Assembly (NCBI GenBank): GCA_019695095.1 | Contig: JAIBAQ010000005.1 | Location: forward strand, 25,144-89,143 | Direction of reading: 5' to 3' | Length of the DNA stretch: 64,000 bases | Source: Candidatus Hydrogenedentota bacterium | GTDB taxonomy: Bacteria; Hydrogenedentota; Hydrogenedentia; Hydrogenedentales; SLHB01 | Shown here: one piece after another, positions 327-56,369 of the stretch | Position numbering within the stretch: position 1 is the stretch's first letter | How the letters are laid out: each line of letters starts with the position of its first letter | Translations under genes and position numbers: made by a program | The notes under the pieces: model-generated | Database searches by the model: none | Told to the model about the DNA's origin: nothing | Seen by the model: only the letters and a program-made list of their open reading frames with translations

Positions 327-3194
327 TCACTCACCCGCCGTAATCTCTGCGCTCTGCCCAAACGCCCCGAAACGTCGAGACTCCATACGCAAACGTGACG
401 TGCCCTTGGGGGTCTCGGGCAATGCGAATTCCACCGATTCAAATCGACCTACGCGCTCTGCCAACGAAAGACGCTCCGCCTTCGCTCCGCTAACGACCGC
501 GAGCGCACAGTCCTTGGCGTCCCAGGCCGCTTCTCCCGTATTGATGACCTCGACAATCAAGCGCCCATTCGCATAGTTCGTCGTAATTTCTGCGTTGAGA
601 CACTCGGCAGGCATGGGCAATTCATAGGGAATACCACCCAACCCCACGAAGGGGCAGTCCGTCGAAGAGGCGCGCGTTCCCGGCGTCGAGATACAGATTG
701 GTTTGTTGTTCTCGTACGCTTCGGCAGCGAACTTCGAATGCTCGGCAACGACGGCAGCGAGACCGGAGGCGTGGGCCGATACGCAAACATCCAATGTATC
801 TGCGCTGGACAATGCCAAGGGTTGAAGGTTCTTTACGTCGTCCGCGACGCGCTGCAAGACCAGCGCCGCGGGCCGCAGAGTCCCATCGGGAGCTATGATT
901 CCGAAATCGCTTCGCTCATCGACGCGGTACCCGCCCGGAAACCACCAGCCAGCCCAGCCATCGGCATTCGAACGTTTAATCATCTGCGCGAAGGAATCAT
1001 AGAGTTCGGCTTGCTTATTCAGGGCCTCCTCTCCCCCATTCCACACCGAGCGCCCAAACTCGGCCCAAAACACGGGTTTGCCATTGCCGGCCCATCGAGC
1101 GAAGTGTCCAACCAACGCGGCATCGGCGATGTTGTCGGGGCCGTAGCCGTAACCTTCAGGAGAGACAAAGTCGAGGTGGGCCGCTCCTGCGGTCAGCGTG
1201 AAGGGCATGACTTCCACCACGCCGCGCGTGCCGGTTCCGCCGTAGCCTGTCCGCGCGCCGCACAAGTGCGTGTCGTCGATCGTGCGGAGAAGTCGAATCA
1301 CTTCGCCGTAGCGCCGGCTTATGAGGTCGTCCGCGAACCGGCAATAGGCCGCAGCCATGGCCGTGTGCGGACCGTCCGCTTTCAACTGTGCGTCCGTGGG
1401 TCCGCTCACTTTCCCGTCCACGCGATTGGCCGGAAACTTCCACACGGATTCCGCGCGTTCGACACTGCCGTATTGTTCCTTCAGCCACGCCTCAAAGAGC
1501 GCGTCGTACTGTGCACGCTCCTTATACAACCCCAATCGCGGTTCCCATGCCAGGTCGTACGCAAAGACACCGGCGTTCCCGCGCAGGTCCGCCGCGCGCA
1601 GCAGTTCCAGGAAGGGCCGTTTCGACAAGTCGTCCGTGGCGCTTGGACTTGTTGGGTGGGCTCCATTGAGATAGATATTCACTTTGATGCCGTATTTCGC
1701 GCACCGCGCGATGAAGTCGCGGAGCTGAGCCGCTTCGGCAGGGCGGATATATTGAACGCTCACGCAGTTCACGCCCATCTGCTGCAATGTAAGCAGGTCG
1801 CGCTCGATGTACTCCGGTTCGTATGTCGCGAGCATGGACCAGCCGCTGAAATACTCCTTAACCTCCATCCCCGAAGTGTACAGGGGCCAGTAGTTGATAC
1901 CGTGCGCAAACCAGGGTTTTCCGTCGAGCACGAACCGTCCGTCTTTCACGGTCACGCACGGCCCATCCACAGACAGGTCCGCCAGCAGTGCCGGCGCGGA
2001 AGCGGTCTGCCGTCCTTGCACCAGCATGGCTGCAACTGCGCGCACAATGGAATCCAACTCCGGGTCGCTGGGACGCCATCCGAGCAACGTCCAGGTTGCG
2101 CCATTTTTGTGCCACGTGGTTGCAAGGGGCGTCGTGGACCAAGTACCACCGGCATCGAGGCCTTTCACGTGCGGTTGCCAAACGTAGTCGCGTTCGGGTG
2201 AGACGTGGCGTGGCCGGGCAATCGGAGAAACGGCCTCGGCCGGTGGCGTCAGGCGAATGTCCTCCCACCCCGGTGTAGCGGCCAACGTGGACACCGCCCC
2301 GCGAAACGTCTTGTAGGACGGCGACAACCCTTCCAGGAGCGGCGCGGATGCCAGAACGAAACCGGGTCCGGCTTTCGCGGTACCCAACCCGCGAAGGATG
2401 TAGGTATACGCGCCTTCGTGGACAATTTGGTGCGACGACGCGAAGCCAACGCTGATGTCGACGAGATTCTCCAAATGCGGCTGGTCGCCAGGACCGCCCC
2501 GCCCTTCGGGAGAGTTGTCTTTCCAGAAGGAGAACTGCGAGACGTGCAGTCCGACGTTGCGCTCTTCCGGCGTGAGCGGGGCAACCGCCATCCAGCGGGC
2601 GCCATCGCGTTCACGCAACTCGATCACGAGCGACGTTGCGCGTTCTCCACCCGCCACACACAGGATGATCACGTCGTGGTCCGCGGGCGCGGCGGTAACG
2701 GGAAGGCCCCGGGTCTCCCAACCGAACGGCGCCACGGCCCTGAGCTTGGCGGAATATCCGTCAGGCAATGGTGAAAATTCCGCCACGACTTGGGGCTGGC
2801 TCGTGCCTCGGCGCGGTTCGGCGGCATTCACCGCCGCCCAATCGACCAGCGCATGTTCAACAGGCAAGGCCGCCAGATAGTCCGTAGGCGCGACCATACG
2901 CCCCTCCGGATCGCGATAGACCAGTTCTTCGAAGGCGGGCCCGCCCACGGCCAACAGGTGTCCGCCGCGCTGCACAAAGCCCTCAAGTGGCGCAATGGAC
3001 GCCGCGGGAAAGACGCGCGCGTCCGGAAGGACCAGCAACGTGTTTGCGTTCAGGCCTTCGAGCTCCTCCGGATGAACGCGCCGCCACGATGCGTCCGCTT
3101 GTGTCCACGGATGCGCCTCGCCATCGTAGGCAAATACGGCCACATCCACGGGACTCGCCGAAAAGACAAGTCCCAGAATCATTGCTGCAAGCAT
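327..3194 (-). CDS. Secreted multi-domain glycoside hydrolase (TIM-barrel GH, GH5/GH2-like catalytic region)
   Basis: Long ORF 327..3482. Start refined to the internal Met MLAAMILGLVFSAS (signal-peptide-like) preceded by a GGGAAGGGGGAAA RBS-like motif. The central region GINYWPLY...GVNCVSVQYI...YGIKVNIYL...FWAEFG resembles clan GH-A TIM-barrel hydrolases. Confidence 0.55.
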   Translation of the reverse strand: MLAAMILGLVFSASPVDVAVFAYDGEAHPWTQADASWRRVHPEELEGLNANTLLVLPDARVFPAASIAPLEGFVQRGGHLLAVGGPAFEELVYRDPEGRMVAPTDYLAALPVEHALVDWAAVNAAEPRRGTSQPQVVAEFSPLPDGYSAKLRAVAPFGWETRGLPVTAAPADHDVIILCVAGGERATSLVIELRERDGARWMAVAPLTPEERNVGLHVSQFSFWKDNSPEGRGGPGDQPHLENLVDISVGFASSHQIVHEGAYTYILRGLGTAKAGPGFVLASAPLLEGLSPSYKTFRGAVSTLAATPGWEDIRLTPPAEAVSPIARPRHVSPERDYVWQPHVKGLDAGGTWSTTPLATTWHKNGATWTLLGWRPSDPELDSIVRAVAAMLVQGRQTASAPALLADLSVDGPCVTVKDGRFVLDGKPWFAHGINYWPLYTSGMEVKEYFSGWSMLATYEPEYIERDLLTLQQMGVNCVSVQYIRPAEAAQLRDFIARCAKYGIKVNIYLNGAHPTSPSATDDLSKRPFLELLRAADLRGNAGVFAYDLAWEPRLGLYKERAQYDALFEAWLKEQYGSVERAESVWKFPANRVDGKVSGPTDAQLKADGPHTAMAAAYCRFADDLISRRYGEVIRLLRTIDDTHLCGARTGYGGTGTRGVVEVMPFTLTAGAAHLDFVSPEGYGYGPDNIADAALVGHFARWAGNGKPVFWAEFGRSVWNGGEEALNKQAELYDSFAQMIKRSNADGWAGWWFPGGYRVDERSDFGIIAPDGTLRPAALVLQRVADDVKNLQPLALSSADTLDVCVSAHASGLAAVVAEHSKFAAEAYENNKPICISTPGTRASSTDCPFVGLGGIPYELPMPAECLNAEITTNYANGRLIVEVINTGEAAWDAKDCALAVVSGAKAERLSLAERVGRFESVEFALPETPKGTSRLRMESRRFGAFGQSAEITAGE

Positions 3195-3394
3195 GGTGTT
3201 TCCCCCTTCCCGTGCGGAATCCGCGCGCCTGCACCGGGTCCGAGATTGCGCGTTATCCTGGCGCGGCACGGATACGTCGCGATTATGGCGAATCCCTCGT
3301 GGCCGCGCCAATTTGTGCGCACGTGTTGATGGTCTTCGTCTTGAAAGCGGAGACAACGAATGTTCGTTGATTAAATGGCAGGGCCTTGTGTGTG

Positions 3395-3646
3395 ACCACA
3401 GAGTACCTGAACTGAGTCGGACAGCGCCTCGCTCGCCGAGCGCGGCGCTACTGAATCGCAGCCGAGGGCGGCTGCGCCACAAGGAGACCCGCCGTCAGCA
3501 AGCGCCGAGGGATGCCCGGCATGGGCCCAAACGCAACAGACCCTGCATAAGCCAACTTCCCGAAACGCGGTCCCGGTAGCGCCTCGCTCGCCGAGCGCGG
3601 CGCAGGGTATTCCGCAGCCTGCAAGTAGTGTAGATGCTGGCGGCCA
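3395..3646 (+). repeat. Repeat family R1, long copy A (~250 bp): two near-palindromic GCGCTCGCCGAGCGC-type modules around a conserved core
   Basis: Direct sequence match to 11719-11969 over ~250 bp and to 3950-4067 over ~115 bp. The core is ctactgaatcgcagccgagggcggctgcgccacaaggagacccgccgtcagcaagcgccgag. Confidence 0.85.
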
Positions 3647-3949
3647 GGGAGTCGGCCCTGACTCGGCATCGGACAGCACGTGCTCTCGTTCACTACTCAC
3701 ACCGTGTGTTTCTCCTGCGCGCCGCACGGCGTAAAACATAACAGCCTGGCGCGGCATCGCCGCAACCAAAAGAGACTCAACCACCGATATACACCGACGA
3801 TTTGACTCGATCCTCCAGAGCGCTGCAAGCGCGAAATACTCCAGCCTGGGGTGAGATGCGCGTCTTGGACGCGAATCGAAACCCCAGGTACCCGCCCTCA
3901 CCCAACGTGAGTCCTGTAAGGACGAAAGCAACTTATGCCGTCCACTTCT

Positions 3950-4067
3950 TAGGAGCCACGACAGAGACCTCGGTTATCCGCGCCGCGCTCGGCGAGCGCT
4001 GCGCTACTGAATCGCAGCCGAGGGCGGCTGCGCCACAAGGAGACCCGCCGTCAGCAAGCGCCGAGAG
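3950..4067 (+). repeat. Repeat family R1, short copy B (first module only)
   Basis: gccacgacagagacc...cgccgcgctcggcgagcgctgcgctactgaatcgcagccgagggcggctgcgccacaaggagacccgccgtcagcaagcgccgag is near-identical to the 5' halves of copies A and C. Confidence 0.85.
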
Positions 4068-4302
4068 ACGCCCACTCTTCCGACGCGTGTGCGCATGATG
4101 ACGCACTTTAGGAAAAGGCCCCCTCCGGGTATAATCGCGGAGGTGGGATGGCAGCCGCAGCCAAGTTTGGGGGAGTATGTCGAACCGTACCCACAATCGG
4201 TGGGTCTCGAAGTCTCAGCAGTTGCGTTGTCTCACTTCCTATGCTATCAGTAGCACGAAGACGACTTAACGACGGTCAAGCCGTCAAGCTGTAACGGGGT
4301 CC

Positions 4303-5550
4303 ATGAGTACAATCGAGCCAGAGCCAGAAAATCTCTCCGCCGAACCCGCGCCGGATGTATGTGCGCATTTTGGGGATTGCGGCGGGTGCCAATCGCAGAA
4401 CGTACCCTACGAAAAACAAGTCCAGGCGAAAAGCGAAGCGCTTAGCGCGTTGTTTCGCGCGCACTGGGAAACGACCATTCCCGTCGCGGAGTCGCCAACC
4501 ATCTGGCACTACCGGAACAAGGTCGATCCCAACTTCGGACGCATGCATTACCCGGAACCGCCGCCAAAGGGATTCGAACGCGAGTTGGTACTGGGGTTCA
4601 AGCGGCACGGGAAATGGTTCTGGACGCTCGACCTCGCGGAGTGCCGCATCGCCCCGGAAGGAATGGACACGCTCGTTGCAGCCGTGCGCGCGTGGGCAAA
4701 AGAACGGAAGCTGACCGCATTCAGTTCGAAGTCGAAGGACGGGTTTCTGCGGGCGTTGCTGGTGCGCGAAGGCAAACGCACCGGGGAACGCATGGTCGTG
4801 CTCGTCACGCACAAAGGCGACCTCGACAAGCAGTCGTTTGTGGATACGGTGCAGGCCGTGTTTCCGTGCCAGAGCATCCAGTGGGCCGTCTATCGCGGAG
4901 ACGCGGAAATCACCGCGGCAGACCAACTGGAGTTGCTGTATGGGAAGCCGTCCATCGAAGAGGTGTTGCACATCCCCGATTCGCGGTTCGAACGCAAACT
5001 GAAGTTCAAGTTGTCGCCGTTCAGCTTCTTCCAGACCAACAGCCTCGCCACCGAACTGCTCTACGGGCAGATTCGCGCGTGGGTGCGCGAGTCGCGCCCG
5101 AGCGTGCTCTACGATCTCTACGGCGGTTCCGGCGGCATCGCGTTTAGCTGCGCCGACTGCGTTGACCGCGTGGTATCGGTGGAAAGCGAAGAGTCTGCGT
5201 CCGTGGACGGCGTCTTCAACCGCGAAACCAACAACATCGACGACGTAATCTTCCTGACGCAGAAAGTCGAAGACTACCTTCGCGAGACCTTGTCCAAGCA
5301 AGGCAAACTGCAATCGAACAACCTTGTCGTGCTCGACCCGCCCCGCGCGGGACTCCACCCCAAGGCCCTGAAGCGGCTGATGATGCTCGAACCCAAAGAG
5401 ATCATCTACGTCTCCTGCAAACCCACCGTCTTCGCGGAAGAACTCCCCGCGTTCCTCACCAAATACGACATCCGCGACATGCGCGCCTTCGACCTCTTCC
5501 CCCACACCGAACACGTCGAACTGCTGACGAGGCTGATGCTGAAGGGATAG
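4303..5550 (+). CDS. Class I SAM-dependent RNA (uracil-5)-methyltransferase, RumA/RlmC-like with Fe-S motif and no obvious TRAM domain
   Basis: An N-terminal CAHFGDCGGCQ 4Fe-4S cysteine motif of the RumA/RlmD/RlmC family. The C-terminal methyltransferase core has DLYGGSGGIAF (SAM motif I-like) and VLDPPRAG (motif IV). Confidence 0.75.
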   Translation: MSTIEPEPENLSAEPAPDVCAHFGDCGGCQSQNVPYEKQVQAKSEALSALFRAHWETTIPVAESPTIWHYRNKVDPNFGRMHYPEPPPKGFERELVLGFKRHGKWFWTLDLAECRIAPEGMDTLVAAVRAWAKERKLTAFSSKSKDGFLRALLVREGKRTGERMVVLVTHKGDLDKQSFVDTVQAVFPCQSIQWAVYRGDAEITAADQLELLYGKPSIEEVLHIPDSRFERKLKFKLSPFSFFQTNSLATELLYGQIRAWVRESRPSVLYDLYGGSGGIAFSCADCVDRVVSVESEESASVDGVFNRETNNIDDVIFLTQKVEDYLRETLSKQGKLQSNNLVVLDPPRAGLHPKALKRLMMLEPKEIIYVSCKPTVFAEELPAFLTKYDIRDMRAFDLFPHTEHVELLTRLMLKG

Positions 5551-5816
5551 CTAGAGCGCGCGCAACGTGACTTTTCTATCGGCCCACACCCGCAAGAGCG
5601 CCGAATAGGAGCAGACAAGACACGACGGCCCCATGCCTTCCTGAGAAAGTCGCGCGTTCCTATTGCCTTCTCGCTGCACTGCCATGTAGAATGTACTATA
5701 TGAGGTTTAACCTTACCTAGCACGTTTGGTCAAACGCAGATTTTGCACATTCACCGTTCCGGCTCGGGGGAGACTGGAAAGGCCGCACAGTGCGGTCCGC
5801 GTAAAGTGGGGCAATC

Positions 5817-8045
5817 ATGTTGACAAGCAATCGTGTAAGGGGAATTGTTCTTCTCGCTCTCGTGATATGCGGTGCAATTGCCGTCTTCCTTACGGGGCAT
5901 AAGACCAGCGAACACATTTCACCAACGCCCAAAACTTCATCGAATAATGTCGCACGATCAGCCTCGCCGAGCTTAGGGGAAGACTCAGATGCTTCCGCGG
6001 TCATTTCAGGGGCAGTTCGAAATCGCCTGACGCAAGAGTCCTTACCTGGTGTGGAATTGCTGCTGCGCGGGAAGGCTGGCGAAGCCGAACGAAGCGAAAC
6101 AGGTGACGATGGGACATACGAGTTTCGTGACCTGCCGCCCGGCGAGTATGTGCTGGAATTCTACTCCCCATCAGGCTTGGTTGAACGAAACCCTGACCTG
6201 ACGAAACGTACTGTCGTGGTGACAGCAGGAGAGAAGGCCAAAGTGGACCTCCTGTTGGATGCCGGCGCAGTCTACGCTGGTCTTGTAATCGACGCCGCAA
6301 CTCAAGCAGTCGTGCAAGACGTGACCGTTATCGCCACGGCAGAGGAGCATTCTCGAGGATATGGCAAAACGAACAATGAGGGCCATTTCTGCCTCATGGC
6401 CCTGCAGGGGGAACTTGAGTACGATGTAGTCGTTAGTAGTGAAGATTATCTCCGGTACACCAAAAAGATCTCCCTTCCCGCTCAGGGTTTTCAGAGTGAC
6501 TCGATTTCGCTGGTACGCGGTTCGGTAATTCAAGGAAGACTTCTCCTTTCCAATAACCAACCCATTGATACAGCGTACGGGTTGGGGAGCATCCGTATCT
6601 CGCTGGAAAACGAGACGGGAACTGAAGTGGCAGGGCCCTCCTCCCAAGTACCTCCCAAAGACAGTCCGCCCGCCCCCGGCACCTTCCGGTTCTCGTTGCT
6701 TCCGACGGGCACGTATTACCTAAAAGCCCAGTGCTATCTCGTACCGGGCTCAGCCTTGAATGGTAAGACCTTCTACCGCGACGAAGCTGTGGTCATACGG
6801 CGTCCCGGCGAAACGGTAGAGGCAGACTTGGCACTGCCTTTTGAAGCGGGTGGGACGGGCAGTATCGAAGGAAGAGTCGTTACAGCAGAAGGGAAGCCGG
6901 TCGCGAATGCGTCGGTCGCGCTTAAGGAGTATCCTCTGGAGACTAGACAGCGGACGGATAGTGAAGGGCATTTTGCACTCCCCAATCTGCTTGAGGGGGC
7001 ACGGTTCGATATCATCGCCCGTTTCGCCTATCACGACTACAAAGAGGAAACCGCCGGGCCCACTCAAGCCGAGGTGACCGGAGTTCCTGTCGGCAAGCGA
7101 AACCTCCGTATTGTGTTGCCGCTTTCTGGAAGCCTGGCTGGGGTAGCCGTGGACAAGGATACCGGCGGCGTCCTTGCGCAGGCAACGGTAGAAGTCGCGC
7201 GAGAATGCATACGAGACGAAACTGGCCAGTTCATCATGCCGAACTCCATGAGAGAAATCGCCCAGACCGATCCGGACGGCTTCGCTGTCCAGTTCCTCAC
7301 ACCTGGAACAGTCACAATTTGCGTCAGTAGTCCGGGGTACTACGCGGTGCGGGTGCCGGATATCCGGATCGAAAGCGGCCAAACAGCCGATGTGGGGCGG
7401 GTTCTGCTTTCGAAGGGAATTCCTGTTCAATTCGAAGTGTATTACGCCAAAGGGTTCTCTGGAAAGCTCTACGGTATTAACGTTTTCACTGCTACGGGCG
7501 GGTGGGCCGAACCCAGTATTGAAGAAAGAGAAGGTCAGGAGAATCCGCGCGTTTACGACGTGTCGATTTCGCCGGGATCCTATCTGGTTACCCCTCTCGT
7601 CGAGTACGAGGGCAGTCCCTGGGAAAGGAGCTACCACAATATTGAAGTGGCGGCCGCTTCCCAGACGGGCAGTACTCAGGTTTTCAAGTTTACCATCGGT
7701 AGCGATACGGGCGAAGTATATGGGGTGATTGAGAACGCGCTCGACTATCGAGTGGAACAGATCTATCTGGCGCGGCAGCAGCAGTGGCCCTACGCGCCCA
7801 ACGAACCCAATGTCAATGCTCGTTTCTATGAAGACCCTACGGCAACATTTCTGATGAGAGAACAACGGCCTTCCGAAACCGGTACATTTCGCTTTGAACA
7901 CTTGCCGGCGGATACCTATGGAATCCATGTTGTATATCAAGACCCCCGGACAGGGGAAAAGCGCGTTGAATCCACGCCAGTCACAGTAGGAGACGGAGAG
8001 ACTTCGGAGGTCTCGCTGAGTCTGCGCGGCGGGGATACAAGCTAA
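5817..8045 (+). CDS. Membrane-anchored protein with multiple carboxypeptidase-regulatory-like (Cna-B / Ig-like) repeats
   Basis: N-terminal TM helix (IVLLALVICGAIAVFLTG), then repeated G.V....G.P..G..V.L...GE..RSETGDDGTYEFRDLPPGEYVL-type modules (DGTYEF, SEGHFALPNL, ETGTFRFEHLPADTY). Lower GC than its surroundings. Confidence 0.5.
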   Translation: MLTSNRVRGIVLLALVICGAIAVFLTGHKTSEHISPTPKTSSNNVARSASPSLGEDSDASAVISGAVRNRLTQESLPGVELLLRGKAGEAERSETGDDGTYEFRDLPPGEYVLEFYSPSGLVERNPDLTKRTVVVTAGEKAKVDLLLDAGAVYAGLVIDAATQAVVQDVTVIATAEEHSRGYGKTNNEGHFCLMALQGELEYDVVVSSEDYLRYTKKISLPAQGFQSDSISLVRGSVIQGRLLLSNNQPIDTAYGLGSIRISLENETGTEVAGPSSQVPPKDSPPAPGTFRFSLLPTGTYYLKAQCYLVPGSALNGKTFYRDEAVVIRRPGETVEADLALPFEAGGTGSIEGRVVTAEGKPVANASVALKEYPLETRQRTDSEGHFALPNLLEGARFDIIARFAYHDYKEETAGPTQAEVTGVPVGKRNLRIVLPLSGSLAGVAVDKDTGGVLAQATVEVARECIRDETGQFIMPNSMREIAQTDPDGFAVQFLTPGTVTICVSSPGYYAVRVPDIRIESGQTADVGRVLLSKGIPVQFEVYYAKGFSGKLYGINVFTATGGWAEPSIEEREGQENPRVYDVSISPGSYLVTPLVEYEGSPWERSYHNIEVAAASQTGSTQVFKFTIGSDTGEVYGVIENALDYRVEQIYLARQQQWPYAPNEPNVNARFYEDPTATFLMREQRPSETGTFRFEHLPADTYGIHVVYQDPRTGEKRVESTPVTVGDGETSEVSLSLRGGDTS

Positions 8046-8046
8046 C

Positions 8047-9426
8047 TTGTCTGATCTACGAAACAGGGAGACGGATATTGGACTGGTCAACGTGAAGAAG
8101 CGGCTACGACTCCGAAGCTGCCTGTGCGTCGGATTCTCGTGCGGGGTCGTTAGCCTGGCCGGTGTGTTCCTGTGCTTTCTTCTGGTTGTAAGAATTGCAG
8201 GTTTCGACGTTGACATGAAAACTCTTCCCTCGTTTATTCACGGTCTCTTCGTCAATTTCCGGAGTTGGACCGCCGAATTCGTCGAACCCACCGATTACCC
8301 TCAATTCTTCACTGTGGTGGCCTGGAATGACTCGATTGTTGGAGTCAACACGAAAAGTACAGAGACGCTGATACGCACAGGCGGGATGCGGGTGGACGGA
8401 GGCACAGTGCGGCGCTGCTTCGAAGACATCAAATCTGGTGTGTCCGAGGATCTAACTCCGTTGTTTTGCCCCATCAGCTTCGATTCGCCAACAGTGCCGA
8501 TCGAAGTGCCGTTCGTGGCCTTTGGCAGAGAGCGTCAGCCCGGTTATGGCGCGGGCCTACCGGGAAACCCCGTGGAGAATGAGACATCGGAAGACGTAGC
8601 GCCATTGAGACTTCTTGCGGGAGTCGACGGACCTACTCCCTACTATACCGTGACACCGCGTGTTTTGTTGGACACTCGGCCTTCCGTGGCTTGGATTGAG
8701 AAACACAACGAGAAAGTGAACTTACTGTGTCTTCTGTCGGATGAGCGAAGTTGCCGTGTCATTCCAACGGATTATAGACCGGATCAACTCGTGGCTGGGC
8801 CAACATGGTGCGACAAGCGTGAACTGTGTCTTCTTGTAAAGGAAGCGGAGAGCGATGCACTAGACCTGGTTCTGGTCTCAATGGCGGACACAAATACAGA
8901 TGTCCAGAGAAGGCGAATCATCGTCCACCTCCCCGCGAAGCCACGGAATATACTCGTGTTCCAAGTTGCACGCGTCGGATTGAGCCACGTCATCCGTATA
9001 GACTCAAGTCTGGATAATGATCTCTATGAATTTGCCGACTGCCTGTTGTACCTGAGACACACAGGTGAAGTGGAGCGTATCAATTGCCAGGATCGGATCC
9101 GCTATCTCTCCCCTTCCGGTACCCATGTATCCTGTGAAGAAGATTCGGAATATGCTCTCACGCATTGGATCTGCAAACTTGACATCGAAACCTTGAGTCT
9201 CACGCGCGTATTGGTAGTAATTGGAGATCCATCGCTTTCTGGATGGGACCAGACGGAGCGGTTTTACGTATCGGCCTTCCATGTATTTCCCCGCTGGACA
9301 AGGCTGTGCGTGCATATGTACGACTTGGAATCAAAGAGGAAGCTACGCCGACTTTCGATTGATAGATACCCGACGGACGACCCGGCGGTCATGGTGGGGT
9401 CTAACAGTGAATTGATAAGAGACTGA
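8047..9426 (+). CDS. Hypothetical membrane-anchored protein (no recognisable domain)
   Basis: Starts 2 nt after the upstream stop, so it is translationally coupled. N-terminal hydrophobic segment VGFSCGVVSLAGVFLCFLLVV. Lower-GC codon usage shared with its neighbours. Confidence 0.4.
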   Translation: MSDLRNRETDIGLVNVKKRLRLRSCLCVGFSCGVVSLAGVFLCFLLVVRIAGFDVDMKTLPSFIHGLFVNFRSWTAEFVEPTDYPQFFTVVAWNDSIVGVNTKSTETLIRTGGMRVDGGTVRRCFEDIKSGVSEDLTPLFCPISFDSPTVPIEVPFVAFGRERQPGYGAGLPGNPVENETSEDVAPLRLLAGVDGPTPYYTVTPRVLLDTRPSVAWIEKHNEKVNLLCLLSDERSCRVIPTDYRPDQLVAGPTWCDKRELCLLVKEAESDALDLVLVSMADTNTDVQRRRIIVHLPAKPRNILVFQVARVGLSHVIRIDSSLDNDLYEFADCLLYLRHTGEVERINCQDRIRYLSPSGTHVSCEEDSEYALTHWICKLDIETLSLTRVLVVIGDPSLSGWDQTERFYVSAFHVFPRWTRLCVHMYDLESKRKLRRLSIDRYPTDDPAVMVGSNSELIRD

Positions 9427-9500
9427 GGCGAAGTGTTGGATTAAGCGGACAAGATGCAAAGAGTGAAGACATCGCAAAGCACAGATGCGGTGATTCACGA

Positions 9501-10433
9501 TTGAATAGTCAACTGACAATTAGCGCTACCAAAACGAATCGGGCCTTGCGAATGGCAAAGAGACTAAGCGTGGCTACAGTCATAATCTGCATGGCTGTCG
9601 CGGTCGTATATTCCGCCTCCAGACTCATCTCTATCGTAAGACACGATATGTTCCCGAATGTCAGTTCACCGGCATCGGCGGCGAACGCGGCGATCCATGT
9701 GCCCGAATTCAACAAGAAAGTCGCCGTCGGGCCGTGTATCGCGTATGGCGACGCCGTGTTGCCGTATTTGGAAGCAGAGTCGTCAAACTACACGCAGCTC
9801 TATCACGGTTCACATAGAAACGTCGCGCTCATCCTGAGCGGAATCGATTCCCCCAAATCACTTGCAGTTCTACGCGAGTTGTATTCGCGAGACCAATTAT
9901 GGGCGAAAGAAGCGGGAATGCTGGGACTTGTTCTATGTGGACAATTTAATGAACCCGTACACGAGGGGGCGTTTATCGTACAAGACATAGACGAAGTCAA
10001 AGCCACCGCTCTAGCATTGCTCGACCGTAAAGAAGCTGTCCCGTTCCTTATAAGCTCGCTCCAGTCCAGCAAGCGAGACTTCTGGGCCCACACCAAGATT
10101 ATGGAGGCACTTGGCGCGTTGGGCGACCAGACGTCGATTGAACCGTTACGCAACTACTTGCATGACAAGACTGTTTTCGCGTTGGACGGGGCGTTTCGGG
10201 CACTGATTATGCTTGGCGACCGAGATGCCATACCGATTACCATCAAACGTATTGAACCGGATATGGATGACTCTCAAGCCCTTGTAATTCCCTCGTTGGA
10301 ACTGGTCACGCGGCAGAACTTTGGCCGGGACAGGGAAGACTGGCAACGCTGGTGGCAGGGTGCTCAAACCTCCTTTCGAATCCCTCCAGAAGCCATAGAA
10401 ACGTTTCGGAAAGATGCTCTTCGTGTACCGTAG
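9501..10433 (+). CDS. HEAT/PBS-lyase-like repeat protein with N-terminal TM anchor
   Basis: TM segment VATVIICMAVAVVYSA followed by HEAT-like repeats (LISSLQSSKRDFWAHTKIMEALGALGDQTSIEPLRNYLHDKTVFALDGAFRALIMLGDRDAIP). Confidence 0.5.
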   Translation: MNSQLTISATKTNRALRMAKRLSVATVIICMAVAVVYSASRLISIVRHDMFPNVSSPASAANAAIHVPEFNKKVAVGPCIAYGDAVLPYLEAESSNYTQLYHGSHRNVALILSGIDSPKSLAVLRELYSRDQLWAKEAGMLGLVLCGQFNEPVHEGAFIVQDIDEVKATALALLDRKEAVPFLISSLQSSKRDFWAHTKIMEALGALGDQTSIEPLRNYLHDKTVFALDGAFRALIMLGDRDAIPITIKRIEPDMDDSQALVIPSLELVTRQNFGRDREDWQRWWQGAQTSFRIPPEAIETFRKDALRVP

Positions 10434-10485
10434 GGTCTCGGCAATTCCAGGTTACATGCCTTACGAGATGTCAAGTTGTTGTTTG

Positions 10486-10519
10486 GCGCCTTGGCGTCTT
10501 TGCGTTTCCTCTTGATTTG
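10486..10519 (+). repeat. Short repeat R3 copy 1 (ggcgccttggcgtctttgcgtttcctcttgatttg)
   Basis: Near-identical 34-bp match to 10781-10814 (one mismatch, g vs a). Confidence 0.8.
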
Positions 10520-10769
10520 CGTTTCTTCTTGAATTGATCTCAACTCAAGATAAGTCGCCAGGATACACCGGCTGTCCGCGTATGACCACTCATTCATTGT
10601 CTTCGTGCTGTTGCGGTGATAATCGAAGAGTCGTTACCACCAAGGCACGATGACACAAAGAAGATAACCCAAAAAGACTCAAGGGTACACAAGTCCACTC
10701 ACGCCTTGCAGACCAAGTATCAATCCTCAGTATCCATGTTGGATATGGATAGCGGCGACGTGCCTTACT

Positions 10770-10845
10770 TTGCGTCTTTGCGCCTTGGCGTCTTTGCGTT
10801 TCCTCTTAATTTGATTTCAACGCAAAGGCGCGAAGACGCCAGGAT
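10770..10845 (+). repeat. Short repeat R3 copy 2 embedded in an imperfect hairpin (ccttggcgtctttgcgtt ... aacgcaaaggcgcgaagacgccagg)
   Basis: Contains the 34-bp R3 unit plus an internal tandem tttgcgtctttgcg duplication and a downstream inverted-repeat arm. Confidence 0.7.
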
Positions 10846-11381
10846 GCTGCGTCAGTCCGCTTGCTACCACTCGCTCATCGCCTCCTTGTCCGGCCTGTCC
10901 CTTTCATTCGCCACGTCAGTGCAACGACTCTGCGCATATATGTGAGGTGCGTCACAAACAGAGTGGGGTTCTTACAATGTCGTTGCAGATACTTTCGCCA
11001 CTCCGCGTATGCTCGCGGCCAGGCTTCGGAGAGTCGGAAGTTCACCGGATGACCGGAATGACTCCCATAAAACGGCCAGGGACTCCCGGTTCCGGGAAAG
11101 GGGGGTGTCCCGTACGAATATGGACAGCCGTTCGCGGGTTTTCAAGAAACGCCATCCGCTCTAACTCATTTTTTCACAGGCGCTTACCCGACATCGTGCG
11201 CCGGTGCGCGCTCGGGGGGCCCCCCTTGCCCCGTCAAAACACATCGCGGGGCACCCCCCTTCCGAGAGTCCGGAGGCGTCGATTCTTCCGCGGACTACCG
11301 TCTCGCGGAAGACTCCTGTTGTCAATCTTGGCCGCAAGAGTACATGCTTAACGTGTGCACACCAATCGGAGGCCACCCAGC

Positions 11382-11642
11382 ATGAAGGTCACCCTTTCAG
11401 ACCTGCGTCGTAATCCCGGGAAGATCGTCGAGGCGATCAAGCGCGGCGAGACGGTCACGCTGTCCAAGCGCGGGAAGGAGATTGCATACATCATTCCAAA
11501 GCACTCGGCAAAGGCACCGATGTCGGCGTCGATCTCGGTCTCGTCATGTTCCGCTATTGGAATGTGGAAAGACCGTGAAGACATGAAAGATCCCTCGACC
11601 AGGACTACAGGGGATACAGGTCCCTATTCCTCAAGATCGTAG
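11382..11642 (+). CDS. Type II antitoxin, Phd/YefM (prevent-host-death) family; orphan, with no adjacent toxin gene
   Basis: MKVTLSDLRRNPGKIVEAIKRGETVTLSKRGKEIAYIIP matches the Phd/YefM N-terminal fold signature. GGAGG-like RBS (caatcggaggccacccagc ATG). The C-terminal GMWKDRED motif is the kind seen in antitoxins of VapC/PIN partners. Confidence 0.65.
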   Translation: MKVTLSDLRRNPGKIVEAIKRGETVTLSKRGKEIAYIIPKHSAKAPMSASISVSSCSAIGMWKDREDMKDPSTRTTGDTGPYSSRS

Positions 11643-11718: not shown

Positions 11719-11969
11719 TGAGCCACGACAGAGACCACGATTAACCTGCGCCGCGCTCGGCGAGCGCTGCGCTACTGAATCGCAGCCGAGGGCGGCTGCG
11801 CCACAAGGAGACCCGCCGTCAGCAAGCGCCGAGGGACTCCCGGCGTCGGCCCAAACGCAAAAAACTCTGCATGAGCCGACTTCCCGAAACGCGGTCCCAG
11901 TAGCGCCTCGCTCGCCGAGCGCGGCGCAAGGTATGCCGCAGACTCCAAGTAGTGTAGCTGCTGGCGGCC
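11719..11969 (+). repeat. Repeat family R1, long copy C (~250 bp)
   Basis: Collinear with copy A (3395-3646) over its full length, in the same orientation. It lies immediately downstream of the orphan antitoxin. Confidence 0.85.
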
Positions 11970-12104
11970 GCGAGAACAGTGGCGCTTATTTGGTTCGTTT
12001 ATCGGAGTTCATCGGTGTTCATCCGTGGTTGAATCTCTTCTGGTTGCGGCTGTGCCGCGCCAGGCTAAGGGAATTTCTTCCCAACGTAGATCGGAGCGAA
12101 TCCA

Positions 12105-13073
12105 ATGTCGGCTTCATTCGTGGTCTTCATGGCGCTTGCGGCGGGTCCCGTTCTTGGTGTCGATTCATCCCGCTTTACGCTCGATGAGCGGCCCGCGTTT
12201 CTGCTGGGTATTAGCTATTACGGGGCCTTGGCCATCGAGGACAAGGCGATTGTGGCGGGCGATCTCGACGAGATGAAGGCGCTCGGCTTTAATTGGGTGC
12301 GGGTATGGGTGACGTGGAATGCATTCGAAAACAACGTGAGCGCCGTCGCGCCGGATGGCTCGGTACGGCGGCCGTATATGGACCGCTTGCTGCGACTCTG
12401 CAAGCTTGCGGGTACGCGCGGCATGGTGGTCGACGTGACGGTGACGCGGGGCAAGGCTCCGGATTTTCCGAGCACCATGGCGGAACATGAAGCCGTGATG
12501 CAGACCTTGGCCCGCGAACTAAAACCGTATCGCAATGTCTATTTCGACGTGGGGAACGAGCGCAACGTGGGCGATGAGCGCCATGTGCCGATGAGCGAAG
12601 TGGGCCGTCTCGTCGAGTCGATCAAGCGCATCGATCCGGACCGGCTGTGTACCGCGTCGCAGGGCGGCGACATCAGCGACGAGGAATTCGGCAACTACCT
12701 TGAAACGGGCAAGGTGGATTTCGTCGCGCCGCATCGTGGGCGCTACGCGGGCAGCGCCGCGGAAACCGGCGAGACGACGCGGCACTATCTGGACTTGATG
12801 AAGGGCGGACGCATCGTGCCGGTGTTGTATCAGGAGCCGTTCCGGCGCGGGTATGCGGATTGGGAACCGAAGGCGGACGACTTCAGAACGGACCTCGAAC
12901 AGTCGAAGGCATCGGGAGCCGCAGGCTGGTGCTTTCACAACGGGTCGGTACGCAGCGGGAAAGGCGACGAACGCCCGCGACGGTCTTTCGACTTGCGACC
13001 GGAGGAAGGCAGATTGTTCGACCAATTCGACGCGGAAGAACGCGCGTTCCTTGACTCGCTCAAGAAACGCTGA
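12105..13073 (+). CDS. Secreted GH5-like (clan GH-A) glycoside hydrolase
   Basis: Signal peptide MSASFVVFMALAAGPVLG. GFNWVRVWVTW and YFDVGNERN (catalytic-acid NE motif of GH5-type TIM barrels). Confidence 0.6.
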   Translation: MSASFVVFMALAAGPVLGVDSSRFTLDERPAFLLGISYYGALAIEDKAIVAGDLDEMKALGFNWVRVWVTWNAFENNVSAVAPDGSVRRPYMDRLLRLCKLAGTRGMVVDVTVTRGKAPDFPSTMAEHEAVMQTLARELKPYRNVYFDVGNERNVGDERHVPMSEVGRLVESIKRIDPDRLCTASQGGDISDEEFGNYLETGKVDFVAPHRGRYAGSAAETGETTRHYLDLMKGGRIVPVLYQEPFRRGYADWEPKADDFRTDLEQSKASGAAGWCFHNGSVRSGKGDERPRRSFDLRPEEGRLFDQFDAEERAFLDSLKKR

Positions 13074-28038: not shown

Positions 28039-28157
28039 CGGTGACGCGCATCACATGGCCATCGCGTCATCGCTGGCCACATAAACTCGCCGGGCACACG
28101 CAGGCCAGTGTGTCACAATGGTCAGGGCTCGTCAACCGCGTGTGGAACGACCACCTA

Positions 28158-28343
28158 CCCCGGATTTTTCACGAACATACTTGAACCTCTCTCGTAACCA
28201 ATGTGTTTGCGAGACTTGCGGCGAAATACAAATCGGTTCTCCAAAAACGGAGTGTGTTCGCGAGAAATCCTCAAGGCATAACCTCAACGTCTTGCACGTG
28301 AGCATTTTGCGTCGGCGCTCAATCGCGCCAGTGCAAATTGCGG
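28158..28343 (+). repeat. Repeat family R2 copy 1 (~186 bp) with internal 17-bp inverted repeats (ggatttttcacgaacat / gtgttcgcgagaaatcc)
   Basis: About 88% identical to 56184-56369. It sits immediately 3' of ppk, between it and the acylase start. Confidence 0.85.
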
Positions 28344-33620: not shown

Positions 33621-34931
33621 TTAGGGGCGTGCGCTCTTGAAGTACGCTTCGGCGGACGCACCAAGCCATGCCACCTGTTCTATCGCGTCGGCTGAGCGTT
33701 CCGCACCATTCGTTTCGCGGACCTGTTGACCGAATCTCTGCGCGCATTCCCGAAATGAAGGTTCTTCGACGACTCGTTTGAGCGCCTGCGCCAAGGCGTA
33801 TCCGCTTATTTTGCGGGGCTTGGGTGCAGCCAGGCAAAAGCCATGACGCACCGCGTGGCGAACCACAAGCTCTTGCTCGAGATGGGCCGGCACGGCCACC
33901 ATGGGCACACCGGCGGCGAGACCTTGGTACATCGTGCCGTTGCCTCCGTGGTAGACCATTGCGGCGCAATGCCGGAGAATGTCTCCTCCGTGAGCGAACT
34001 CGGCAAAGCGAAAGTTTGCGGGGGCCTGTTGCATGGTGTCTTTGCTGACTTGACCACCCGTAGTGACCAGGAATCGATACGGAAGCTTGCCCAACGCTTC
34101 GTAGGTACGATTCAAGAACGTATCGAAAATGCCAGTCGACCCCATGGACACGTAGATATTGGGCGTACCGTCGTCTAGTTCATCCATCCATTCCGGGGGC
34201 GGCGCGGGATGATCGAATAGGATGGGGCCGACCGTATGGTAATGCGGGCAACGCGGCGACGGATCATACAGCGTGGGGAGATCGGGAGAGAGAATCGGAA
34301 TAGAGCATAGCAGTCGCATGGCATTGACCGGCTTGACGCCGTGGCGTTTGTACACCCTACGCCGCATGGGCTCCAGGTTCCAACGGTCCCACGAACGCAG
34401 GTGCATGCGGTAGTACGGATTCGAGTTGATGTGATCGAGGAAGTAGGCGCCCTGCACACAAGCAACGGGGATTCCGGTGATGTAGGCGGAGGTGCTGGCA
34501 GACACCGAACTGTCGCCGACGACAATGTCCGGTTTCTCCCGCCGGATGATCTCGACGTGGGACTCAATGATTTCGTGAAGCGGCGCCCAACGCGAAACAA
34601 AGGTCAGGTCGATCGATGTCTTGAACCAGCCGTGCTTGATAAACCTGTCCCACACGTACGGGTGATTGGGTTCCGGCGCGACGACGTGCCGAAAATCCGC
34701 CTGCCTCACCAGGCTCATCTTGGAACGTGGAGTAGACGCATCAACCCCCACGAAGAACACTTCGTGACCACGCGCCCTGAGGACTTTGGCAATTTCGATA
34801 GGGCGAACCGTGTGAGCCAGCACGTAGCTCAAGGGGATAAACATGACCTTGAGGCGGCGGCCCGGATTGGCACGGGCGGAAGTGGTATCGCTATCGACCG
34901 CTGATGATCTGGCAGCTAACGCAGATTTCAT
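33621..34931 (-). CDS. Glycosyltransferase family 1, MGT/UDP-glycosyltransferase type (GT-B); alternative start at 34844 (MFIPLS)
   Basis: MFIPLSYVLAHTVRPIEIAKVLRARGHEVFFVG N-terminal acceptor domain. A C-terminal UDP-sugar binding region (HGGNGTMYQGLAAGVPMVAVPAHLEQ). Convergent with the ARH gene, with 20 bp between stops. Confidence 0.7.
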   Translation of the reverse strand: MKSALAARSSAVDSDTTSARANPGRRLKVMFIPLSYVLAHTVRPIEIAKVLRARGHEVFFVGVDASTPRSKMSLVRQADFRHVVAPEPNHPYVWDRFIKHGWFKTSIDLTFVSRWAPLHEIIESHVEIIRREKPDIVVGDSSVSASTSAYITGIPVACVQGAYFLDHINSNPYYRMHLRSWDRWNLEPMRRRVYKRHGVKPVNAMRLLCSIPILSPDLPTLYDPSPRCPHYHTVGPILFDHPAPPPEWMDELDDGTPNIYVSMGSTGIFDTFLNRTYEALGKLPYRFLVTTGGQVSKDTMQQAPANFRFAEFAHGGDILRHCAAMVYHGGNGTMYQGLAAGVPMVAVPAHLEQELVVRHAVRHGFCLAAPKPRKISGYALAQALKRVVEEPSFRECAQRFGQQVRETNGAERSADAIEQVAWLGASAEAYFKSARP

Positions 34932-35000
34932 GAAACGTCCGTACTGATATGCCTTGATGCCGATTCGGCAGGCTGTAAATGGATCCGATTATTCCGCGGT

Positions 35001-38000
35001 TCAGGCGTGAATGTTGGCCTCTCGCTCGCGCACGGCCCTTCGAGGTTGAGCCGGCGAAAGAGCGTCCAGCGCTGCCCGGACCTGGATTGCAAGTTCTTTG
35101 GCGTTGGGATCTATAAGCATCGTGATATGGTTGCCCGGTGCTGAGGCCACATCGACGGGTTGCGTAGAATATCGCTTCCAGCCGAGCGTCGGATCTCCGA
35201 AAAGACGACGCAACAGACCTGAACGGCGCGCCAGCGAGAAGGAATCCGCCCAAACATAAGGCAAGCCGCCCAAAACGGCGCGCCAATTCTGGCGTAAGGC
35301 CCGCCAGAACATGACTATTGTGTGCTGCTTGGCTCCGCGCGGAATCGAAGTGAAGAGCTCGCGCGTGTGTACGAATACCACTTTGCCGTCGAACACCGGC
35401 GGGGCATATTTGACGGCGGCGTTGCTCGTCATCTTGACGTTTTCCACCAGACCGTGAATGGCTCCGGGGCCCGAATTCGGAGGCACAAACCCAACCTTCT
35501 TCAACGAATCCAACACGGCCTCGTATTGTTCGTCAACAGGCAGGCGCTTGAGCGTCGAGTACGAAATGTCAAAACGTGTCTGGAAGAAGAATTCAACCAG
35601 CATGAGAACGCACGCCAGCCAGAATGCATCGTCGGCAGTAGCCTGACATGCTGAATAGACCTGCGCTGCCTTCTGGGCGGGCAGCGGGGCAATGCTGTCC
35701 AACAGCACAACTGCGCCGACTTCGCAGCCTTCAGCCTTAAGCAGACGCGCAAGTTCGAGCGCGACGACACCACCGGAAGAGTGGCCGCCCAAGTAGTAGG
35801 GACCTTCGGGCTGCACTGCCCTAACCGCGCTCACGTAGTGCCGCGCCGTCTCCTCGATGGAATCGAACACAACGCGCGCGCCGTTGACACTGGGCGCTTG
35901 TATGCCATAGAAGGGGCGGTCTTCGCCCATGTGCTTGGCCAAGGCCATGTAGCAGAACACGGTGCCCGGAGCAGGATGCACGCAGAAGAACGGTGGTTTC
36001 GAACCGCGCGGTTGAATCGGCACAATTACGGGAACCGGTTCGTCGGTGGCCTGATTGCGCAGCACGGCCGCCATCTGCTCGATTGTTGGCGATTCGAAGA
36101 GAGCCGTCGGAGGGACAAGACGGTCGAACTTCTGAAGGATCTGATCCATCAGATACACGGCGGACAGTGAATGACCGCCCAGATCGAAGAAGTTGTCCGT
36201 GACTCCAATAGGCCGGACATCGAATACCTGCTCCCAAATGTGCACGAGTTCCAGTTCGACCGCATCGCGCGGGAGCACAACCGGGCCACGCATATTTCGG
36301 TCTTCGCGTTCCGGCTGCGGCAGGGCTTTTAAGTCCACCTTGCCATTGGGGGTCATCGGGAGTTCGTCAAGCACGACGAACGCGGATGGAATCATGTACT
36401 CAGGCAGCAGTTTCTTAAGCTGCGATTTCAGTTCGCCATTGAACGACTTGTTGCGTTCGCGCGGAACGATGTACGCGACCAGTTGACGGTCTTGCGGAAC
36501 GTCTTCGCGCGCCATGACCACCGTTTCGGCGACATCCGGATGATCCTGCAAGACCGATTCGATCTCGCCGAGTTCGATGCGGTACCCGCGAATCTTCACT
36601 TGATGATCGGTTCGCCCGATAAACTCTAGGTTACCGTCCATGCGGTACCGTACGATGTCGCCTGTTCTGTAGAGGCGCTCGCCGGGGATCTGCGCGAACG
36701 GGTTGGGCACAAACCGATCTTCGGTGAGTTCAGGGCGGTTCAGATAGCCGCGGGCCAATCCCACGCCGCCGATATAGAGTTCACCGGCGACGCCAAATGG
36801 GGCGGGCCGCATGCGGTCGTCCAATACAAATACCTGCATATTGGCAATTGGCTTGCCAATGGCGGGCGCTTCCGTGCCGTCGCCGTCGTACTGTGCCGCG
36901 GTCACGTAAACGGATGTCTCCGTCGGACCGTATGCGTTGATGAAGCGGCGGCTGGCAGCCCATTGCGCGGCCAGTGCAGGCGGACAGGCTTCTCCGCCGA
37001 CGATAACCGTCTTCAAATCGGGCAAATCTTCCGGCGACAAGGTCTTCAGATACGACGGAGTCAGCAAGACCACGTTCACATTGTGTTGCTGAAGCAGGCC
37101 GCGCAATTCGCGAGACGAGGTGACCGTCTCTTTGCTGGCGAGGCACAAAGTGCTTCCGGCGCAGAGTGTGGGGAAAATCTCCATCGCCGACGCGTCGAAA
37201 CTCATCGAAGCGAACTGCAGCACGCGGTCGCCGACGCTGAGTTTCGCGAGGTCGCGTGCATTCAGAGCCATGTTTGTTAGGCCGCGATGTTCGATCATCA
37301 CGCCCTTGGGGAGGCCCGTGGAACCCGAGGTATAGATAACGTATGCAAGATTCGTTGAAGACGCGCCGGGCTCCGGATTTCGACCATCGCATTGCGCAAT
37401 TGCAGCCCAATCCGAATCGATGCACACCACGCGGGCTCCGCTCTTGGGCAGGGCCGACAGAATTCCGCTCTGGGTGACAAGTACCGGAGTCTTTGTGTCG
37501 TCGAGGAAGAACTTCAAGCGTTCGTGGGGATAGCTGGGGTCCATGGGCACGTAGGCGCCGCCCGCCTTCATGATGCCCAGTATTCCCACAATCATCTCGG
37601 TCGAACGCTCCACACACAATCCAACGACCGTTTCAGAAGTGACTCCAAGAGTTCGGAGATAATGAGCGAGGCGATTGGCGCGCTCGTTCAACTCCGCGTA
37701 CGTCGTCCGTTCTTCGCCATACAGTAGGGCGATGGCATCGGGATGCTTGGCTGCCGTTTCTTCGAACAGACCGACCACGGTACGGTCCAAGGGCAGGCCG
37801 ACGGCCGTATCATTGAACTCCACAACGAGACGACGAAGTTCGTCTTCTCCCACCAGCGAGACTTGGGAGACCGCCAATTCCGGATTCGCGATCATCGCAT
37901 CCAGGACATTGTCGATGTGACGAATGGCGAGAGTCTGTAGGGCGTCATCAAAATAGGCCCGATTGAAATCGAAGCCAATTCCGAAACTCTCGTTCACGGG

Positions 38001-39338: not shown

Positions 39339-39453
39339 ATTCCGTAGAAGTTATTTTGCCCTGAATGCAACATCGAAATGTTTGCCGTTCCAACCGTACA
39401 TAATGTCAAGTTAGATTCTCCAGAGCAAGCCGGGAGATTTTTCTCGCGCCCGA

Positions 39454-56164: not shown

Positions 56165-56183
56165 GGCACCATCTCGCCGTTAG

Positions 56184-56369
56184 CCCGGATTTCTCACGAA
56201 CACACTTGACCTTTTCTCGTAGCCAGTACGTTTGCGGGACTTACGACGAAAAACAAAGCGGTTCTCCGAAAGAAGAGTGTGTTCGCGAGAAATCCTCATG
56301 GCATAACCTCAACGTCTTGCACGTGAGCAATTTGCGTCGGCGCTCAATCGCGCCGCTGCGAAATGCGGG
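56184..56369 (+). repeat. Repeat family R2 copy 2 (~186 bp)
   Basis: About 88% identical to 28158-28343, including the 17-bp inverted repeats (ggatttctcacgaacac / gtgttcgcgagaaatcc). It fills the gap between convergent gene ends. Confidence 0.85.

Follow-up and report, generated by a model that had tools for sequence, protein, structure and literature searches.

A probable lineage-specific islet of three membrane-anchored proteins at a variable chromosomal spot in a Hydrogenedentota genome

We analyzed a 64-kb stretch of DNA (hereafter the window), part of a 91-kb contig of a Candidatus Hydrogenedentes metagenome-assembled genome (MAG), in which three co-directional genes, g1, g2 and g3, lie between a transfer RNA (tRNA) (uracil-5)-methyltransferase-like gene and a gene resembling glycoside hydrolases of family 5 (GH5). 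We conclude, with a probability of about 0.6, that the region from approximately 5.6 to 11.35 kb is a lineage-specific accessory islet, most likely acquired or fast-evolved, occupying a variable spot between these two genes. A Phd/VapC toxin-antitoxin pair also appears to have come and gone at this methyltransferase/GH5-like spot. The genomes used for comparison, both of them Hydrogenedentales MAGs, are JBAZRU010000052 (L002) and JBHEKO010000764 (L003). The features of the locus, in window coordinates, are:

4303–5550, + strand: left anchor, tRNA (uracil-5)-methyltransferase-like gene (Pfam tRNA_U5-meth_tr, 65.5 bits), outside the islet
5551–5816, unstranded: upstream non-coding stretch holding the left junction; similarity to the intergenic DNA of L002 and L003 is lost past the methyltransferase stop codon
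5817–8045, + strand: g1, 742 amino acids (aa), ATG start; signal-anchor helix, Ser/Pro-rich linker and CarboxypepD_reg array
8047–9426, + strand: g2, 459 aa, TTG start; orphan protein with no recognisable domain
9501–10433, + strand: g3, 310 aa, TTG start; HEAT-repeat protein with an N-terminal transmembrane (TM) helix
10434–11381, unstranded: non-coding tail of about 0.95 kb, missing from L002 and L003
11382–11642, + strand: orphan Phd/YefM-type antitoxin gene (PhdYeFM_antitox), at the right edge of the insertion or deletion (indel)
11720–12066, unstranded: hairpin repeat resembling miniature inverted-repeat transposable elements or repetitive extragenic palindromes (MITE/REP-like), where the toxin gene has been lost
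12105–13073, + strand: right anchor, GH5-like (Cellulase family) gene (Pfam Cellulase, 32.2 bits), outside the islet

Comparison of the window with the two related genomes delimits the islet. The methyltransferase gene is found in both (89–90% protein identity, 83% DNA identity), and homology stops at about 5545. In L002 the orthologue of the GH5-like gene (76% protein identity to that of the window) begins within about 80 nt of this gene, and a BNR-repeat gene comes next; L003 has an intact pair of Phd/YefM antitoxin and PIN (VapC) toxin genes (L003 11415–12024) after the methyltransferase gene, and the GH5-like gene after that pair. The segment from about 5546 to 11380 of the window, consisting of the trio and its 0.95 kb of non-coding DNA, matches neither of them. 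Since L002 and L003 possess the conserved flanks without the trio, these approximately 5.8 kb are a clean indel between conserved genes, that is, a presence/absence polymorphism of the kind by which genomic islands are defined. An examination of gene neighbourhoods in related genomes had been proposed in the initial annotation of this DNA, which regarded the trio as probably horizontally acquired, and it finds the trio missing from this site in both relatives; a metagenome scan with the flanking methyltransferase revealed no close relative, so that the comparison comprises these two genomes. At the methyltransferase gene L002 and L003 share 91% identity, and each shares 83% with the window, from which it follows that the two genomes represent one sister lineage. 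As a separate observation, L002 and L003 agree with each other over the 10 kb preceding the methyltransferase gene (92% identity), and this DNA has no counterpart in the window, so that synteny is broken to the left of this gene as well.

The right edge of the indel bears the traces of the toxin-antitoxin pair. The product of the gene at 11382–11642 scores 29.7 bits against PhdYeFM_antitox (PF02604; cut-off 29.8) and shares 69% identity with the L003 antitoxin in residues 1–67, its C-terminus being replaced. No VapC/PIN remnant is left in the window, and thus no Phd/YefM-VapC pair is present there; neither the antitoxin nor the toxin gene exists at this spot in L002. The Phd/YefM-like gene, already recognised as an orphan antitoxin in the initial annotation, is the remnant of an ancestral Phd-VapC pair. 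Repeats are found on both sides of the block. A MITE/REP-like element of about 222 nt occurs in three copies, one of them partial (3424–3645, 3953–4073 and 11720–11969), together with an inverted fragment (3743–3800 / 12009–12066). The copies are 92–95% identical by self-BLAST and have terminal inverted arms of 36 nt, and the element folds into a long hairpin (RNA fold z-score −6.5). They bracket the methyltransferase-trio-antitoxin block, one of them sits where L003 has its VapC gene, and the element is not found in L002 or L003. Two open reading frames (ORFs) on the − strand touch these repeats. The first, of 186 aa (3371–3931), is built largely from the element, has 86% identical tblastn 'paralogues' at 11749–11967 and is probably not a gene; the second, of 1051 aa (327–3482), has the first 20 codons of its maximal form inside a repeat copy and gives no Pfam or NCBIfam match. 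A second intergenic repeat family is present elsewhere in the window, as direct copies of about 188 nt with 87% identity (28156–28343 and 56181–56368).

The non-coding tail of the islet (10434–11381) contains no Rfam family, its ORFs have no Pfam match and it shows no similarity to phage or plasmid DNA. It does contain a 37-nt direct repeat (10483–10519 and 10777–10813, 95% identity, 294 nt apart), which gives substance to the earlier description of the downstream region as repeat-rich. A terminator-like hairpin, 52 nt past the g3 stop codon, overlaps the first repeat copy, and the second copy is followed by a partly complementary, hairpin-capable stretch (about 10816–10845).

The base composition of the trio differs from that of its surroundings. 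The G+C content of the module is 53.8% (g1 55.3, g2 52.5 and g3 52.3%) vs. 57.7% for the window, 60.7% for the left flank and 57.8% for the right flank, the dip being the lowest 4.6-kb stretch in the window (roughly the 2nd percentile). At third codon positions (GC3) the values for g1, g2 and g3 are 0.573, 0.578 and 0.582, approximately 10 points under the mean of 0.674 (standard deviation 0.059) of 38 window ORFs, and the directly flanking genes reach 0.78 and 0.75. Within the window, the trio segment also deviates most strongly in tetranucleotide distance (z 3.2) and in dinucleotide relative abundance (z 2.9); because the latter measure is normalised for base composition, it is not accounted for by the GC dip alone. 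Synonymous-codon distance is higher for g1 than for other genes of about its length and is not raised for g2. Sliding GC and codon analysis, suggested as a check on the AT-richness perceived by eye, thus reveals a deviation in the direction that had been described, of smaller size than the contrast proposed at that time (about 50% in the module, 62–65% in the flanks). Composition and the orphan status of the proteins favour a gain of the trio in the lineage of the window.

The three genes correspond to the GenBank entries MBX7255052.1 (g1, 'carboxypeptidase-like regulatory domain-containing protein', 742 aa), MBX7255053.1 (g2, K1Y02_01735, hypothetical, 459 aa) and MBX7255054.1 (g3, K1Y02_01740, hypothetical, 287 aa); exact-sequence look-ups of g1, g3, the GH5-like protein and the antitoxin returned no record. 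Three starts are available for g2, TTG 8047 (459 aa), GTG 8092 (444 aa; N-terminus MKKRLRLRS followed by the TM helix) and ATG 8215 (403 aa, without TM helix), the last being the gene call on an independent contig from the Logan assemblies. Likewise g3 may start at TTG 9501 (310 aa), at ATG 9552 (293 aa) or 18 nt later (287 aa, as in GenBank). The gap between g1 and g2 is a single base (8046) if TTG 8047 is used and 46 nt if GTG 8092 is used, and the tight junction therefore depends on the start that is chosen; the gap between g2 and g3, 74 to about 140 nt across the possible g3 starts, is not tight. Whereas the three co-directional ORFs lie where they had been placed initially, the tight spacing attributed to them is retained at most between g1 and g2. 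On the + strand no terminator-like site is seen between g1, g2 and g3 and one is seen at 10485–10498, 52 nt after g3, which suggests that the three genes are probably one transcription unit; terminator-like sites are no more numerous in the real sequence than in shuffled sequence. The same holds for promoter-like sites, one of which is located at 5663–5692 upstream of g1. An ATG ORF of 488 aa that runs antisense to g1 (6750–8216, − strand) is most likely one of the shadow ORFs that coding DNA rich in G+C often contains.

A Kyte-Doolittle scan identifies exactly one hydrophobic segment in each of the three proteins, located at the N-terminus, and none elsewhere; the hydrophobic region, defined by 19-residue windows, is in each case preceded by basic residues. 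Single-pass proteins with short, positively charged N-terminal tails are expected to be oriented N-in/C-out, and the bulk of each of the three should therefore face the periplasm or the cell surface. The N-terminal anchor predicted at the outset for all three proteins is recovered as one helix each, that of g2 disappearing if translation begins at ATG 8215.

The domain content of the outer two proteins is likewise as first proposed. Carboxypeptidase-regulatory-like repeats in g1 are matched by CarboxypepD_reg (PF13620) with 138.7 bits over five stretches (gathering cut-off 32.3 bits), which places the protein within this family, and a weak sixth stretch is found near the C-terminus (residues 686–736). 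The array thus comprises at least 5–6 domains of the transthyretin (TTR)-like β-sandwich type, behind a TM helix that is preceded by a tail of about 8 residues. Database searches with g1 return, besides the protein itself, only repeat-level matches with 25–30% identity that cover 21–72% of its length, and the C-terminal 200 residues or so are essentially orphan. Membrane-anchored CarboxypepD_reg/TTR-like array proteins are known from bacteria such as Planctomycetota and Acidobacteriota, and g1 resembles them as a single-pass membrane protein with a tandem array of such domains, well above the cut-off of the family. It differs in that its best relatives are longer (1039–1292 aa), contain additional domains (PDZ, sigma-70 regions) and are encoded among unrelated genes: the gene neighbourhoods of these distant relatives contain no partner genes in common with the trio and no defence genes. 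In Pfam g1 also touches the TTR-like models of EMC7 and NOMO; these eukaryotic proteins have the same fold as CarboxypepD_reg arrays, which we regard as an analogy of fold only. A local match of residues 35–186 to the Kustd1514-family S-layer glycoprotein of anammox bacteria (NF052345) associates g1 with another envelope protein containing this type of domain; with 37.4 bits against a cut-off of 1400, and an alignment to about 150 of the 1596 positions in the profile, g1 falls outside that family. Among the distant metagenomic g1-like proteins, P0006 (L026 2291–5416) and P0010, of approximately 1040–1180 aa, contain regions 2 and 4 of extracytoplasmic function (ECF) sigma-70 factors N-terminal to long CarboxypepD_reg arrays. 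They represent either an unusual architecture combining sigma factor and extracytoplasmic array in one polypeptide or a gene-call fusion.

HEAT repeats, the feature originally noticed in g3, are detected by two Pfam models above their cut-offs, HEAT_2 (PF13646, 37.3 bits vs. 27.7) and HEAT_PBS (PF03130, 31.5 bits vs. 20.9), so that g3 belongs to both families. The only matches to g3 are itself and one HEAT protein at 39 bits. Its single-sequence AlphaFold2 model is all-helical and, with a predicted local distance difference test (pLDDT) value of 41, unusable. HEAT_2/PBS-lyase HEAT-like proteins such as CpcE and NblB are the nearest described group, sharing with g3 the two Pfam assignments and the predicted all-helical structure. 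However, g3 remains far under the specific cut-offs (29 bits vs. 330 for CpcE, 19 vs. 300 for NblB) and differs from proteins of this type by its N-terminal membrane anchor and by having no homologue beyond generic repeats. As far as is known of its phylum, the host is not a phototroph with phycobilisomes.

The middle protein, g2, is an orphan in every search that was made. The statement that it has no recognisable domain holds, since it gives no Pfam match even at E ≤ 10 and none in NCBIfam, PHROG or PADLOC. Among 5.8 billion clusters its only homologue is itself, and an exhaustive HMMER search over 1.84 billion representatives yields itself and one artefact: the protein P0012 (E 8.5e-4), considered as a relative, was rejected as spurious, being a tandemly repetitive sequence without a real domain. 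A phmmer search against PDB sequences returned only noise (E ≥ 0.37), and scanning genomes with g2 yielded no relative. The protein contains 15 cysteines, and self-BLAST detects no internal repeats. The AlphaFold prediction that had been recommended for g2 was run from the single sequence and gives a mostly β-strand model which is unusable (pLDDT 35).

Both the setting and the physical reality of the segment were assessed. Elsewhere the window has the content of an ordinary chromosome (SMC, RNase Y, YmdB, FolD, a MiaB-like radical-SAM enzyme and the polyphosphate kinase PPK), for which reason the element is neither a plasmid nor a phage. Among the remaining genes, a single-module nonribosomal peptide synthetase (condensation-adenylation-thiolation-thioesterase, 1445 aa, 35001–39338, − strand) is located between two glycosyltransferases (33621–34931 and 39454–40602), and the − strand region 33621–40602 may be a small glycolipopeptide-type biosynthetic cluster. 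Two contigs assembled independently in Logan from run SRR1027651 overlap the islet. The first, L043, is identical to window 4036–6904 (100%), spans the left junction and starts inside one of the MITE/REP-like copies; the second, L001, matches window 7385–10800 with 99.97% identity and breaks off within the second 37-nt repeat copy. Neither the left junction nor the gene order g1-g2-g3 is thus specific to the MAG assembly. Independent contig cover ends at 10800, and the right junction (10800–11381) is given by the MAG assembly alone.

Small strain-specific islets in variable chromosomal spots with toxin-antitoxin genes provide a close parallel to this locus, which combines presence/absence polymorphism, atypical composition and orphan cargo with a degraded Phd-VapC pair and MITE-like repeats at the same spot. 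From a classical integrative island the trio islet differs by having no integrase, no tRNA target and no flanking direct repeats, and for these reasons it falls outside the classical definition. A search for target-site duplications and terminal inverted repeats at its junctions found nothing beyond chance.

Several points weigh against an acquired islet and against the roles proposed below for its proteins. No integrase, recombinase or transposase is detected with Pfam in the trio or in the ORFs of 10364–11376, the window contains no tRNA, and the two junction regions share no word of at least 10 nt, 9-mers occurring at chance level. The compositional deviation is moderate (2.4–3.2 standard deviations inside a single 64-kb window) and could also reflect low expression or young, fast-evolving genes. 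A start at ATG 8215 would leave g2 without a membrane anchor; the roles suggested for g2 and g3 have no fold support, both AlphaFold2 models having failed; and co-transcription, topology and complex formation of the trio are matters that we infer. Finally, a loss in the lineage of L002 and L003 is as parsimonious as a gain in that of the window, so that parsimony does not settle the direction of the indel.

This last point leads to the alternative that deserves most attention, although we judge it unlikely: the trio would be ancestral to this group of Hydrogenedentales and would have been deleted toward L002 and L003, its low GC3 reflecting weak expression or relaxed selection. Such a history would require a single deletion only, L002 and L003 being one sister lineage; the spot is clearly one that loses genes, the toxin-antitoxin pair being missing in L002 and VapC in the window; and neither mobility genes nor att-like repeats are present. 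On the other hand, g2 and g3 have no homologue in other genomes or metagenomes (about 15 billion proteins), and the GC3 shift common to all three genes as well as the rank of the segment as top tetranucleotide and dinucleotide outlier speak against this history. Acquisition or fast evolution of the islet in the lineage of the window remains the more probable reading.

As to function, no catalytic, nucleotide-binding, signalling, sigma/anti-sigma or defence domain was found in the trio (Pfam, NCBIfam, PHROGs, PADLOC), and a literature search found no instance of its combination of domains. The three proteins might together form a non-enzymatic, envelope-associated assembly for binding or structural purposes, involved neither in signalling nor in immunity. 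In such an assembly g1 would be a rod of six or more transthyretin-like β-sandwich domains held off the membrane by its Ser/Pro linker, g3 would serve as an α-solenoid scaffold for protein binding, and the cysteine-rich g2, predicted to be mostly β-strand, would be the specificity subunit. The acquired envelope-associated system suggested in the initial annotation is thereby upheld in part, as an accessory, probably acquired and membrane-anchored set of genes (missing in L002 and L003, deviating in composition, with orphan g2 and g3), and its further, tentative suggestion of a sensor or defence-like module is not supported: PADLOC gives no significant match, no effector or signalling domain is present, and the neighbourhoods around g1 relatives are not conserved. 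A more specific proposal, for which we see only a small chance, is that the trio constitutes an undescribed envelope apparatus of Hydrogenedentota, in which g1, which could be a periplasm-spanning or surface stalk, presents g2 while g3 acts as scaffold, with a specific role that no current family describes; this could be, for example, the capture of substrate or prey, adhesion, or the exclusion of phages.

It is very improbable that the three genes encode a new anti-phage defence system, associated with the membrane and placed beside a toxin-antitoxin locus in the manner of a defence island. A variable spot in common with a toxin-antitoxin module and a gene cluster that is accessory, orphan and compositionally atypical would be in keeping with such a system. 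In the PADLOC scan that had been proposed as a check, g3 gives faint matches to the candidate models HEAT-ARM_XIII and WGR_XIII (about 14 bits, E 0.002–0.004). These are, however, sub-significant HEAT noise at the level of the repeats; g1 and g2 have no match in PADLOC-DB v2 at E ≤ 1, no defence match of the trio is significant, and the trio is not assigned to any defence system of that database. Moreover, domains of effector type (nuclease, ATPase, NTPase, TIR, SIR2, protease or others) are absent from the three proteins, the window shows no further defence genes in the vicinity, and as the trio cluster was found in no other genome, there is no guilt-by-association signal for defence.

We give similarly little credence to a role as an envelope sensor or signal-transduction module, for instance anti-sigma-like or as co-receptor. 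The idea draws on the ECF sigma-70 regions fused to CarboxypepD_reg arrays in P0006 and P0010 and on another distant g1-like protein encoded near an ECF sigma / FecR pair. The likeness of g1 to P0006 and P0010 is nevertheless confined to generic β-sandwich repeats at 25–30% identity, and g1 itself has no sigma or anti-sigma domain and a cytoplasmic tail of only about 8 residues. Indeed, no Sigma70_r2/r4, zf-HC2, RskA or FecR domain that would indicate an ECF sigma/anti-sigma pair is found in the trio or its neighbours, no kinase, GGDEF, HAMP, PAS or response-regulator domain is present, and no sigma factor is adjacent in the window. Least credible of all is an assembly or binning artefact joining foreign DNA into the contig: although the DNA comes from a MAG, the right junction lies beyond independent contig cover and L001 stops inside a repeat with MITE-like repeats close by, the left junction is exact in the separate Logan assembly (L043), the ends of the segment are both intergenic, the genes beyond them being whole and syntenic with those of the relatives, and no repeat common to both junctions could have caused a mis-join.

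If the reading as a lineage-specific islet is correct, the locus would be a further small islet encoding orphan envelope proteins, from a phylum that is uncultured, and such orphan islets are common in the genomes of uncultured phyla. It opens no long-standing question. Its use lies in the documentation of a variable spot, the methyltransferase/GH5-like junction with its toxin-antitoxin decay and MITE-like repeats, and in g2 and g3 as a clean example of proteins without relatives among about 15 billion sequences. The finding would acquire greater weight only if the trio were to form a functional surface or periplasmic complex.

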